This document shows positions 752 to 4,352 of a DNA stretch of 6,988 nucleotides, in pieces. The notes under the pieces are model-generated. The model was not told the DNA's origin. It saw only the letters and a list, made by a program, of their open reading frames with translations, and searched no databases. The stretch lies in assembly GCF_024298765.1 (NCBI RefSeq), contig NZ_CP101214.1, one strand, 5' to 3'. Within the stretch, counting starts at the first letter, position 1, and each line of letters opens with the position of its first letter. This DNA is from Escherichia coli. GTDB lineage: Bacteria > Pseudomonadota > Gammaproteobacteria > Enterobacterales > Enterobacteriaceae. A program made the translations under genes and the position numbers.

Positions 752-1174
752 TTACTGTCTGCCCTCGTATCCATCGAGATAAACCGCAGAAATGGTGTCT
801 GCCATTAGTTTCATTTTTTTCGGCGAAGGCATATCGCTGTTTGTGTATTTTCTGCCAGCAAAGGCTGTTGTGCTCCGGAGTGAGTGAAAAAATTTTTCTG
901 AGTGGAATTCTTTTACACGTTGCTGTGCCGTTTCTGCTGATACTCCGGCTGCTTTGTCTTTCATCCCCATATCCCGGAACTGCTGAAAGAACGGGAGCAT
1001 CATACGTATGGTGTCTGCTTTCTGGGTGTAGAAGTTAGGATCAAATCCATCATCTGAAGCATAAACATAATGCCGGGTATGTCGTTCCAGGCTGGTCTTT
1101 GGTGTGCATCCTGTAAGAGCTATTGTTGCTGTTATCAGAGGTATCAGAAGCAGCCTGGCAGCGGCAGATTTCAT
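752..1174 (-). CDS. Small lipoprotein of unknown function (about 140 aa; possibly an entry-exclusion-type lipoprotein)
   Basis: ORF on the minus strand. AAGGAG lies 6 nt upstream of the second ATG (1174); the first ATG (1180) abuts the SD. N-terminus MKSAAARLLLIPLITATIALTGC has a basic n-region, a hydrophobic core and an L-T-G-C lipobox (signal peptidase II type). Thr at +2 suggests outer-membrane sorting. Confidence 0.65.
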   Translation of the reverse strand: MKSAAARLLLIPLITATIALTGCTPKTSLERHTRHYVYASDDGFDPNFYTQKADTIRMMLPFFQQFRDMGMKDKAAGVSAETAQQRVKEFHSEKFFHSLRSTTAFAGRKYTNSDMPSPKKMKLMADTISAVYLDGYEGRQ

Positions 1175-1295
1175 AAACATCTCCTTGCGTTTTTAATCTT
1201 GATACTCAGGGAGTTATATCTCCGAAGAGTATCTCTTATCATACGTCGGTTTACTCCCAATGTGATTTGATGGTCAATGAGTCAGGAATAATCCC

Positions 1296-2095: not shown

Positions 2096-3742
2096 ATGGC
2101 TAAAGAACTAAGTGGATATGGACCAACTGCTGGTGAGTCTATGGGGGGAACAGGGGCGAATCTGAATCAGCAAGGTGGAAATAATAATAGTAATAGTGGG
2201 GTTCACTGGGGTGGTGGCTCTGGGCATGGTAATAATGGTGGTCAGGGAAATTCAAATTCATCTGGTTCTACATCAACTGTGATGAAAACCGGTGAGTCAT
2301 ATCTGACTCCGTGGGGTGATGTTGTCATTAATAATGATGGCCTTCCGGTGATGAATGGTATTGTTATGACAGAAGAGAATTCAACTCTGGTTGATAATCC
2401 ATTTGGAGGGGTCTCCAGAGTTCTTAATTCTTTAATTAGTGATATGCCATCACTTTTTGCAGAAAGCTCAGGAAATAACAACAATAACACTGCTTCAGTT
2501 AATACTGCACCAACGAATGCTCAGGTCAGTGATATGGATAAGAGTTCGAAGGTGGTGGGTAATGTAATTAATGAAAAACAAAAGCAGAAGAATAAAATTG
2601 CTACACAGATTAGTGAAAAACAGAAGAAAATCGAGGAGATGAAAAAAGTATTCAAGCATCATTCTTATCATGGTATCACTGATCTTGAGAGGGATGTTGA
2701 TGAGTTGCAAAAAAAATCAAATCAGCTTGATGCAGATATTAGCAAACTTAATTCTTATAAAAATACATTGCAAAGTAAAATTGGTGATGTGAATAAACAG
2801 AAGGAAGCTGAAGAAAAGGTTCGTGAAAATGCAGAGGTCGCTGAACATGAAACTCTTAATGAAGAGAAACAGGCGGTGGCGGAAGCAGAGAAGCGTTTAG
2901 CTGAGGCGAAAGCTGAACTGGCGAAGGCTGAAAGTGATGTACAGAGTAAGCAAGCTACTGTTTCCAGAGTTGCAGGAGAGCTTGAAAACGCTCAGAAGAG
3001 TGTTGACGTGAAGGTCACCGGATTTCCGGGATGGCGTGACGTTCAGAAAAAACTACAGCGTCAGCTTGAAGCTAAGCAGGCTGAGTACTCCGCAGTTGAA
3101 AATGAACTTAAGAATGCTGTTAGTTTCAGGGATGGTAAGGCCGCTGAGGTTAAAGAGGCAGAGCAGAAATTAAAAGAAGCTCAGGATGCTCTTGAAAAGA
3201 GCCAGATAAAAGATGCTGTTGATACTATGGTTGGATTTTATCAATATATAACCGAACAATATGGAGAAAAATACGCAAAAATTGCTCAGGATTTAGCGGA
3301 AAAGTCTAAAGGAAAGAAAATTCAAGGTGTTGATGAAGCTCTGGCAGCATTTGAAAAGTATAAGAATGTACTGGATAAGAAATTCAGTAAGGTTGATCGG
3401 GATGCTATTTTTAATGCGTTAGAGTCTGTTAATTATGATGAGTTATCTAAGAATTTAACGAAGATATCAAAGTCGCTTAAAATCACCAGTCGAGTATCTT
3501 TTCTATATGATGTTGGTTCTGATTTTAAAAATGCAATAGAAACTGGTAACTGGCGACCTTTGTTTGTCACGCTGGAGAAAAGTGCGGTCGATGTAGGTGT
3601 GGCAAAAATTGTGGCATTAATGTTTAGTTTTATTGTTGGTGTGCCTCTTGGTTTCTGGGGGATTGCAATTGTCACAGGTATTGTTTCTTCTTACATAGGG
3701 GATGATGAGTTGAGCAAACTTAATGAGTTGTTAGGGATTTAA
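2096..3742 (+). CDS. cka: Pore-forming colicin, most likely colicin K (548 aa)
   Basis: 548-aa ORF with a Gly/Asn/Ser-rich N-terminal domain (typical of Tol-dependent colicin translocation domains), a long charged coiled-coil central region, and a C-terminal domain with a hydrophobic helical hairpin ([35 protein letters not shown]) typical of pore-forming colicins. Length and N-terminus [15 protein letters not shown]... match my recollection of colicin K. SOS promoter upstream, immunity and lysis genes downstream. Confidence 0.85.
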
Positions 3743-4029
3743 TTTCTCTTTAGAGTGTAATATATGAAACTTGGCAATCCTACTGGGATTGCCATTAATA
3801 AATAAAACAATGCAGATAACTTGCATAAGTACCAGGGTTCTTTTTTTAACTTTGTATTTTCTTTGATATATCTAGATATGGTTAATTTAGAGTATGGATA
3901 TAGCAATACATGTATTGATGATATAAATATAAATAACAAAGGAGTGTTATCATTCTCGTTAAATATTAAAATAAGAATCCATGGTATAAGTGATTCAGGT
4001 AAATTATGTAGGTAGTATTTTAAATGCAT
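3739..4029 (-). CDS. cki: Colicin immunity protein (integral membrane, 96 aa), convergent with the colicin gene
   Basis: Minus-strand ORF immediately downstream of and opposite to the colicin gene, the arrangement typical of pore-forming colicin immunity genes. Very hydrophobic protein with several predicted TM segments ([35 protein letters not shown]). Its stop codon overlaps the colicin stop at TTAA 3739-3742. Confidence 0.85.
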
Positions 4030-4058
4030 AAGTATTTTTACTTTTGTTGGAAAGAAAT

Positions 4059-4190
4059 ATGAAAATAATAATTTTTCTAATTACAATATTATTCTTGTCA
4101 GGATGTCAAGCAAACTATATTCGTGATGTACAAGGAGGAACCGTTGCACCATCTTCGTCTTCTGAACTGACGGGGATCGCGGTTCAGTAG
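4059..4190 (+). CDS. ckl: Colicin lysis (bacteriocin release) lipoprotein, 43 aa
   Basis: ATG at 4059, TAG at 4188-4190; not in the ORF track because it is short. [43 protein letters not shown] has a signal peptide with an L-S-G-C lipobox and the conserved mature region of colicin lysis proteins. Last gene of the colicin operon. Confidence 0.85.
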
Positions 4191-4199
4191 AAAAGATCA

Positions 4200-4226
4200 A
4201 AGGATCTTCTTGAGATCCTTTTTTTC
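4200..4226 (+). terminator. Putative rho-independent terminator at the end of the colicin operon (overlaps the RNA II promoter)
   Basis: Inverted repeat AAGGATC (4200-4206) / GATCCTT (4214-4220) with a 7-nt loop, followed by a T-run (4219-4225), 10 bp after the lysis gene stop. Confidence 0.55.
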
Positions 4227-4249: not shown

Positions 4250-4352
4250 ACGAAAAAACCGCCTGGGGAGGCGGTTTAGTCGAAGGTTAAGTCAGTTGGG
4301 GACTGCTTAACCGGGTAACTGGCTTTAGTGGAGCACAGATACCAAATGCTGT
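4250..4352 (-). ncRNA. RNA I antisense copy-number control RNA (about 100 nt)
   Basis: Minus-strand promoter: -35 TTGAAG (complement of 4383-4388), 18-bp spacer, -10 TACACT (complement of 4359-4364), start near 4352 (ACAGCAUUUGG...). 3' end has a hairpin, AACCGCCT / AGGCGGTT at 4257-4276, followed on the minus strand by a U-run. Fully complementary to the 5' end of RNA II. Confidence 0.8.

Follow-up and report, generated by a model that had tools for sequence, protein, structure and literature searches.

In ColE2 and ColE7, an internal terminator termed T1 gives rise to a major short mRNA that lacks the lysis gene and to a minor long mRNA that contains it (PMC5157957, PMC2896534). This T1 lies after the immunity gene, where it overlaps the ribosome site of the lysis gene and binds CsrA (PMC2896534). 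Destabilizing the T1 stem of ColE7 speeds up the decay of cel mRNA, the authors of that study suggest that the T2 hairpin blocks 3' exonucleases, and both the T1-type stem and T2 are discussed as mRNA stabilizers (PMC2896534). Since the lysis protein kills the producer, the ratio of colicin message to lysis message sets the yield of toxin before death. Terminators in the colicin A operon were reportedly described by Lloubes et al. in 1988, and Ebina and Nakazawa are said to have found in 1983 that termination of colicin E1 transcription is rho-dependent. Outside colicin operons, the REP hairpins between malE and malF are intercistronic stem-loops that stabilize mRNA.

Our literature search returned nothing on terminators in the colicin K operon, the sequence papers of the 1980s-90s, which possibly mention the dyad described below, being beyond its reach. 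Here, we analyze a hairpin located between the colicin and lysis genes of a colicin K plasmid, and compare it with the elements listed above and with the corresponding junctions of other pore-forming colicins.

Organization of the colicin K operon

The window, by which we mean the whole stretch of DNA that was analyzed (6988 bp), is a complete small colicin K plasmid. Over the toxin region, many 6988-bp plasmids from E. coli, Shigella, and Salmonella match it at 99.9% identity, and the reference plasmid pColK-K235 is 99.7% identical to the window. The features of interest are as follows.

2096-3742, + strand: cka, the colicin K gene (548 aa; stop codon at 3740-3742), found in the list of open reading frames (ORFs) and annotated as cka in near-identical plasmids including pColK-K235
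3772-3794, either strand: junction hairpin TGGCAATCC-tactg-GGATTGCCA, with nine perfect pairs, within the cki codons for (M)AIPVGLP
3841-3847, + strand: run of seven T, the complement of AAA AAA (Lys-Lys) in cki, outside the hairpin element
4029-3739, - strand: cki, the colicin K immunity gene (96 aa), convergent with cka; Pfam PF17500 is recorded for homologues
4059-4190, + strand: ckl, the lysis lipoprotein gene (ORF 4044-4190, internal ATG at 4059), annotated in relatives as colicin release lysis protein
4199-4221, + strand: terminator-like hairpin AAAGGATCTTCTTGAGATCCTTT followed by TTTTCTG, directly past ckl, listed on both strands by the terminator scan

The stop codons of cka and cki share 4 nt (TTAA, 3739-3742), which leaves no spacer between the two genes, and the 316-nt interval between cka and ckl is entirely cki antisense. 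Because the colicin and immunity genes overlap in this way in the E1/K/10 group, any element that sets the ratio of colicin to lysis message has to sit inside the immunity gene.

A perfect hairpin follows the colicin gene

The original prediction was that an 8-bp stem, GGCAATCC-tactg-GGATTGCC (3773-3793), together with a T-rich string further downstream, might form a leaky terminator before the lysis gene, in DNA that also encodes the immunity protein on the opposite strand. The stem is indeed present and does lie within cki. The full perfect stem is one pair longer than predicted (TGGCAATCC/GGATTGCCA, 9 bp, with a loop of 5 nt), and five of its nine pairs are G-C. In the + strand RNA, a tenth pair (U.G) is possible, leaving a loop of 3 nt. 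The folding energy, which had been proposed as a check, is -15.1 kcal/mol on the + strand and -14.2 kcal/mol on the - strand, with z ~-5.1 on both, and none of 200 shuffles folds as stably on either strand.

The hairpin is beyond chance. The window contains four perfect stems of at least 9 bp (loops of 3-10 nt) vs. 0.2 expected from dinucleotide shuffles, and the cka-ckl region (2096-4190) contains one vs. 0.09 expected. The remaining three are found at 731-754, the 3' end of an unnamed - strand ORF; at 4199-4221, the terminator-like site just past ckl; and at 4256-4277, within an Rfam RNAI match (4250-4350, - strand). This RNAI match is the only one returned by an Rfam search of the window, in which no family matches the hairpin. 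Within 3743-4058, the hairpin at 3772-3794 is the sole significant stem.

The stem starts 29 nt past the cka stop, downstream of the complete cka frame. Read on the - strand, it corresponds to (AT)G GCA ATC CCA GTA GGA TTG CCA, encoding M-A-I-P-V-G-L-P, and sits 11 codons ahead of the cki stop (10 codons ahead of the imm stop in ColE1).

Conservation of the stem in colicin K relatives

Relatives drawn from a plasmid collection include colicin K variants, colicin 10, lineage L009, immunity-only copies on large plasmids, and two K-like plasmids whose immunity protein is 70% identical. The Cki family consists of 13 clusters, all from Escherichia, and its members in the plasmid collection, which extend down to 59% protein identity, come from Escherichia, Shigella, and Salmonella only. 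None of the nine pairs is lost in any of the nine distinct sequences of the K, 10, K-like, and E1 types, whereas the loop sequence varies (TACTG, GATAG, GATCG, AAATG). Between the window and the diverged relatives L009 and L010, cki DNA identity is 68-69%, and 44-46% of the codons that keep their amino acid show synonymous differences. Nevertheless, none of the five synonymous third positions in the stem has changed, a result of borderline significance (P ~0.05). When the Cki protein was held fixed and its codons were randomized, a stem of at least 9 bp arose at this place in 0.4-4% of trials. Local conservation relative to L009 shows a modest peak only (0.75-0.83 vs. a mean of 0.74). Moreover, the peptide is conserved too, and part of the invariance of the stem is protein constraint. 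Taken alone, the tests within the ColK group (invariance and the Cki codon null) are therefore suggestive rather than strong.

The same data can be read to mean that the palindrome has no function of its own and is a by-product of the A-I-P-x-G-L motif and A+T-rich codon usage, carried along by plasmid recombination. The peptide MAIP[VI]GLP is invariant in the K/10 group, Pro82 is invariant across E1-type immunity proteins, and the Cki codon null does not go below the values just given. As far as the hairpin, K83, K82, and Col10 hardly differ from ColK, which looks like shared recent ancestry or recombination and not like independent conservation. Covariation in the stem consists of a single double change; the other eight of the nine pairs are uninformative because they never vary, and say nothing either way. 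With Cki relatives of this range in the plasmid collection, the one comparison informative for covariation is that with ColE1.

Comparison with ColE1

In ColE1 (NC_001371.1, 85-115), the dyad found after cea, GTCCTAGCAATCC-aaatg-GGATTGCTAGGAC, has 13 perfect pairs vs. 9 in ColK, and starts 22 nt past the cea stop vs. 29 nt past the cka stop. Its stem folds at -23 kcal/mol with z ~-8 (about -14 kcal/mol for ColK). The two dyads have in common the core GCAATCC/GGATTGC, the immunity codons for A-I-P-x-G-L, and the overlapping ATTTAA stops (of cea and imm in ColE1). Beside the core, the K group has a G:C pair where ColE1 has A:U, a compensatory change of both bases. The outer four pairs of ColE1 are built from residues and flanking codons different from those in ColK. 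When codons were permuted with the ColE1 protein and codon usage held, a fraction of 5e-5 reached 13 pairs, and 0.2% reached 9 or more.

An A/S-I/V/L-P motif is common to all E1-type immunity proteins in the protein alignment. The colicin FY immunity protein writes its A-I-P as GCC ATT CCT, and the stem is absent there. The same residues can thus be written in nonpairing codons, which shows that the palindrome is not forced by the protein. Judged by this comparison, the palindrome is a choice made at the nucleotide level, a question that ColE1 settles.

We also scanned metagenomes for the pattern ATTTAA-N(18-34)-GCAATCC-N5-GGATTGC, in which the core is fixed and the outer pairs alone are free to vary. 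The scan returned at least 120 stretches, and about 60 of the first 120 matches are of the ColK, Col10, or ColE1 type, the rest being unrelated. The matches listed contain one variant, i.e., 1 variable of 12 free stem bases vs. ~2.3 expected, a comparison that has no statistical power.

Junction hairpins in other pore-forming colicins

We examined 13 pore-forming loci, i.e., K, 10, L009, E1, a Shigella E1-like locus, Ia, Ib, FY, S4, B, and loci of Arsenophonus, Serratia, and Providencia. A strong hairpin starts 3-29 nt past the colicin stop in all 13, with unrelated stem sequences. In Ia, Ib, S4, B, FY, and Arsenophonus, the genes are arranged convergently as in ColK, and the hairpin lies 3-18 nt past the stop with energies (-9 to -22 kcal/mol) comparable to that of ColK. 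In these loci, it spans the stop codon of the immunity gene, the spacer being 13-29 nt, whereas in E1, K, and 10, with their 4-nt gene overlap, the stem is located inside the immunity frame and not over its stop. Several of the loci outside E1/K have T-rich tails on one or both strands, like two-way terminators: the tail is TTTTATAAT in Ib and TCTTTTAAT in S4, and Arsenophonus is T-rich on both strands. In the protein alignment, the E1/K/10 stem coincides with the A-I-P motif and is thus shifted inward in the immunity protein by ~15 residues. Given this shift, the ColK stem is an analogue rebuilt at a new place and not an inherited copy of the same stem. By its placement, the ColK hairpin is the E1/K/10-group version of the junction hairpin that follows the colicin stop.

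These comparisons bear on the by-product reading introduced above. A perfect 13-bp stem is highly improbable given the ColE1 protein, ColE1 and ColK arrive at perfect stems with different flanking residues plus one compensatory change, and FY dispenses with pairing codons for the same motif. In addition, unrelated hairpins recur past the colicin stop in 13/13 loci, and the other perfect hairpins of this size in the window coincide with the end of a gene, a terminator-like site, or part of the RNAI match. We consider it unlikely that the palindrome lacks a function of its own. The sequence comparisons show that the stem is selected at the nucleotide level, and its structure, conservation, and placement are likewise established.

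A perfect inverted repeat might also act as DNA, i.e., as a site for a dimeric protein, as a cruciform, or as a recombination point at the boundary between the colicin and immunity-specificity modules. The similarity of K83, K82, and Col10 to ColK holds at 88-100% as far as the 3' edge of the stem and within 20 nt drops to 54-62%, which would agree with such a boundary. However, the immunity-specificity part of cki begins at the same point and is expected to diverge under selection anyway. We recognized no known protein site in the repeat, its variable loop length and sequence and its outward extension in ColE1 are typical of RNA stems and not of spaced half-sites, and the junction hairpins of the other colicin families are unrelated in sequence. 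A role at the DNA level is thus very unlikely.

The downstream T run

The T-rich string that had been noted around 3836-3848 is present as well, ggttcttttttt occupying 3836-3847 and c-ttttttt 3840-3847. The distance between the hairpin and this T run is 46 nt. An intrinsic terminator requires a U tract within a couple of bases of its stem; the two elements are too far apart to be one terminator, and this part of the original prediction does not survive. What would speak for a partial intrinsic terminator or attenuator composed of the hairpin (3773-3793) and the T run (3841-3847) is that both are on the operon strand between cka and ckl, and that colicin operons use a leaky internal terminator (PMC5157957, PMC2896534). 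However, beyond the gap itself, the minimum-energy fold places the T run in a hairpin loop and not after a stem. There is no significant hairpin before the T run, the only stem there (3810-3826) having an energy of -4.6 kcal/mol with z = +0.19 and a sequence that is not kept in relatives. The consensus terminator scan makes no + strand call at the T run, which reads AAA AAA on the opposite strand, within the cki codons for K-L-K-K-E, and which is interrupted in the most diverged relatives, L009 and L010, where it reads TTCTTTATCT. The T run is not beyond chance and is unrelated to the hairpin. As a terminator tail it is ruled out by the gap, the insignificant stem, the Lys codons, and the lack of conservation, and we give the composite element next to no credence.

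Tails of the hairpin on the two strands

On the operon strand, the hairpin has the stable stem and the position past the cka stop that are expected of an intrinsic terminator, and lacks the adjacent U tract. The tail after the ColK stem is UUAAUAAAU, with a T-tract score of 2.0; it is CAAACAAAG in ColE1, with a score of 0.01, and UUGCUAGGU in colicin 10. The consensus scan does not call the hairpin a terminator on the + strand. Judged by its tails, the hairpin could not amount to more than a weak intrinsic terminator on the operon strand. The missing U tract agrees with the rho-dependent termination reportedly found for colicin E1. For ColK, we considered a Rho loading site downstream on the + strand. 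The interval is C-poor on that strand (9.5% C, 16.5% G), a composition that is unfavorable for loading, which makes a Rho step weak.

Nor does the hairpin conform to the T1 type. It shares with T1 the form of a stem-loop and an equivalent place on the operon strand, between the colicin and lysis genes. In contrast to the T1 of E2/E7, which lies over the ribosome site of the lysis gene, the ColK stem is ~265 nt upstream of the ckl ATG and inside the antisense immunity gene, and the overlap with the lysis-gene ribosome site and its CsrA GGA motifs is not found in ColK. The fold of the ckl leader (3985-4075) shows no significant structure (z = -0.66). By these comparisons, the hairpin departs in one defining feature each from an intrinsic terminator, from an E2/E7-type T1, and from the usual junction terminator.

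The picture on the - strand is different. The scan calls the ColK hairpin terminator-like on this strand only, and narrowly so, with the tail AGTTTCATAT (5 T in 8) and a T-tract score of just 1.06. In ColE1, whose strong T tail is confined to the immunity strand, the - strand call is a clear one and has 14 pairs, the tail TTTTATATCA, and a score of 4.2. The L009 hairpin fails on the - strand, with a score of 0.20. The tails on this strand are AGUUUCAUAU in K, AGCCUCAUAU in L009, and UUUUUAUAU in E1. The hairpin might accordingly function as an intrinsic terminator within cki/imm, halting immunity transcription wherever no ribosome trails close behind. Such a terminator would prevent constitutive transcription of the immunity gene from continuing into the antisense of the colicin gene, whereas translated transcripts would read through as far as the stop codon.

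Besides the scan calls, which are restricted to the - strand in both ColK and ColE1, and the large difference between the two ColE1 scores, this proposal fits a natural ColE1 variant in which the covarying pair persists on the - strand as G.U and is mismatched (A.C) on the + strand. It also fits the composition of the cka antisense, which is C-rich and G-poor (26% and 13%), so that transcripts passing the stop would meet a Rho-friendly sequence. However, the ColE1 variant is one polymorphism in two contigs (L061 and L136). The hairpin does not lie downstream of the stop of its own gene on this strand, and transcripts terminated there would lack the last 7-11 codons together with the stop, and so be nonstop messages of an essential protective protein whose last codons are conserved at the protein level. 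Furthermore, the U tract lacks conservation (TTTTTATAT in ColE1, TGTTTATAT in the Shigella E1-like locus, AGTTTCATAT in ColK, and AGCCTCATAT in L009, with scores down to the 1.06 and 0.20 given above), and a membrane helix, with its Leu, Phe, and Ile codons, is expected to make this strand U-rich. On balance, we regard a function on the - strand as doubtful. In its most elaborate form, the proposal would have a working terminator inside the immunity frame, 10-11 codons before its stop and conserved throughout the E1/K/10 group, acting as a translation-gated switch while the same stem ends or protects the colicin message on the other strand. Polymerases closely followed by a ribosome would read through to a complete immunity message, and uncoupled ones would terminate before entering the colicin gene in antisense. 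We find this dual arrangement quite improbable.

A putative role at the 3' end of the colicin message

We propose that the hairpin sets or shields the 3' end of a cka-only mRNA on the operon strand, thereby lowering the amount of read-through RNA. We estimate the probability of this reading at about 50%, its action on transcripts being deduced from structure, placement, and conservation. The stem lies past the full cka frame and yet before the cki stop, and hence an intact message could be ended or protected by it only on the + strand. As the stem alone is kept, while the loop and both tails vary, the pattern fits an exonuclease barrier or a pause site rather than a terminator that depends on a U tract. 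A 3'-end-protecting or pause hairpin would therefore fit better than a leaky intrinsic terminator. The hairpin has the attributes of a stabilizing stem-loop, i.e., a stable stem after the upstream cistron that is conserved independently of its tail.

The original prediction of a leaky stop before the lysis gene can thus be upheld in part. What stands is a selected stem on the operon strand, right after the colicin stop and ahead of ckl, with a counterpart in 13/13 loci. What does not is the intrinsic nature of the terminator, which the poor + strand tail and the missing + strand call make at best a weak description.

A parallel can be drawn with the REP hairpins of malE-malF. In both cases, a stable stem comes right after a cistron that needs far higher expression than the next one, and a function residing in the stem alone, as in REP stem-loops, would match the stem-only conservation seen in ColK. 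Unlike REP, the ColK hairpin is not a REP sequence, has no Rfam match, and is embedded in the coding sequence of the opposite strand.

The proposed mechanism would operate as follows. Upon SOS induction, RNA polymerase starting from the cka promoter would transcribe the stem, which at 29 nt past the stop is taken to be clear of the terminating ribosome. The hairpin may then cause pausing or low-efficiency termination, perhaps including weak termination in ColK in view of its T-tract score of 2.0. It may also act as a barrier to the 3'-to-5' exonucleases that shorten transcripts after cleavage or termination further downstream, where the antisense-cki stretch is 74% A+U and untranslated. The two routes might act singly or together. 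In either case, colicin message would exceed read-through message, the latter consisting of cki antisense and the lethal lysis gene, and the transcript level of ckl, the downstream cistron, would be reduced. As for its origin, the 4-nt gene overlap leaves no spacer, and the stem was probably built from synonymous codons of the A-I-P-x-G-L motif instead.

The colicin:lysis message ratio that such an element would set also determines the antisense transcription that the immunity gene must withstand. If our proposal is correct, the hairpin is a compact regulatory RNA stem written in the synonymous codons of a gene on the opposite strand, and would offer a practical means of adjusting how engineered strains release colicin. 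The concept of a stop within the operon, ahead of the lysis gene, was established long ago, so the gain is local rather than conceptual, and the finding is real but fairly ordinary. Its less ordinary aspect is that the stem is written in the synonymous codons of the opposing gene and that, in ColE1, it resembles a full terminator within the frame.

Other elements in and around the hairpin

Two further resemblances were considered and rejected. The resemblance of the hairpin to a sigma-54 promoter (TGGCA...TTGC) has a spacing that is, by eye, ~6 nt too long. A CsrA site in the - strand loop matches, also by eye, 6 of 12 consensus positions in ColK, and ColE1 is no better.

Finally, the terminator-like hairpin directly past ckl (4199-4221) folds at -18.2 kcal/mol with z = -3.9 and has a T-tract score of 3.48 on the + strand. 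Unlike the hairpin at 3772-3794, it has a proper T tail on the operon strand.

Mosaic structure of ColK-like plasmids

By sequence comparison with three related plasmids (L004, L005 and L007) over window positions 3430-3540 and 3790-3980, ColK-like plasmids are mosaic. The K-like plasmids, which carry a colicin K annotation, match the window at 96-100% identity across most of the compared 3′ part of the colicin gene cka, from position 3250, with similarity dropping to 38-62% in a single block of the pore domain (3430-3540). A second drop to 38-62% occurs in the immunity gene cki, starting at the 3′ edge of the junction hairpin. Together, these two blocks of divergence look like a matched swap of toxin and immunity specificity.

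Within the hairpin itself, a ColE1-type variant is found in two metagenome contigs (L061 and L136, one of which is OIZS01002072.1), where the 3′ arm contains GGATTGCCAGGAC. Only one pair shows covariation when ColE1 is compared with ColK; in this variant it is A.C on the colicin strand but G.U on the immunity strand.

Converging genes and immunity-only copies

The stop codons of cka and cki overlap by 4 nt (TTAA), in the sequence ATTTAA at 3737-3742, and there is therefore no spacer between the converging genes. The same motif is found in one of the compared sequences:

57-62 of L011: ATTTAA

The overlap is conserved in ColE1, colicin 10 and L009, a further lineage; spacers of 13-29 nt are found at the Ia, Ib, FY, S4, B and Arsenophonus loci.

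The shared stop codons are also the point at which similarity to ColK starts in three large F- or I-type plasmids carrying cki-family genes, L006 (CP027641.1), L008 (NZ_CP075668.1) and L010 (NZ_CP027324.1). Beside these genes, a colicin gene was neither seen nor annotated, and a colicin 10-type lysis gene adjoins at least two of them. Such immunity-only copies could provide protection without colicin production. In L006 the cki-family reading frame, as extracted, is offset by one base.

Coding details and putative promoter of cki

Residue 25 of Cki (codon 3955-3957) is Glu in the window (NEND), whereas it is Asp (NDND) in pColK-K235 and other relatives. All plasmid matches listed are at most 99.0% identical to the window Cki, and thus none of them encodes exactly this protein. 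The cki message contains a zero-frame A AAA AAA heptamer (codons UUA AAA AAA GAA; 3841-3849, minus strand), a pattern that can permit ribosome or polymerase slippage.

Judging from its hexamers, the cki promoter likely lies within the signal-peptide codons of the lysis gene ckl, approximately 45 nt upstream of the cki ATG:

4080-4109, minus strand: putative cki promoter (TTGACA at 4109-4104, 18-nt spacer, TGTAAT at 4085-4080)

It was absent from the scan output because its second hexamer has no A at position 2. The ColE1 immunity promoter has likewise been assigned to the interior of the lysis gene.

Other hairpins in the window

Two further hairpins were found:

4199-4221, both strands: terminator-like hairpin AAAGGATCTTCTTGAGATCCTTT, directly 3′ of ckl
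731-754: perfect 9-bp hairpin TAAGGGATT-atggta-AATCCCTTA, at the 3′ end of ORF 752-1180 (minus strand, 142 aa)

Since the first is terminator-like on both strands and lies 29 nt from an Rfam RNAI match (4250-4350, minus strand), it may have a dual placement, ending the lysis operon one way and neighbouring the replication-control RNA the other. The second is probably the terminator of the 142-aa ORF.
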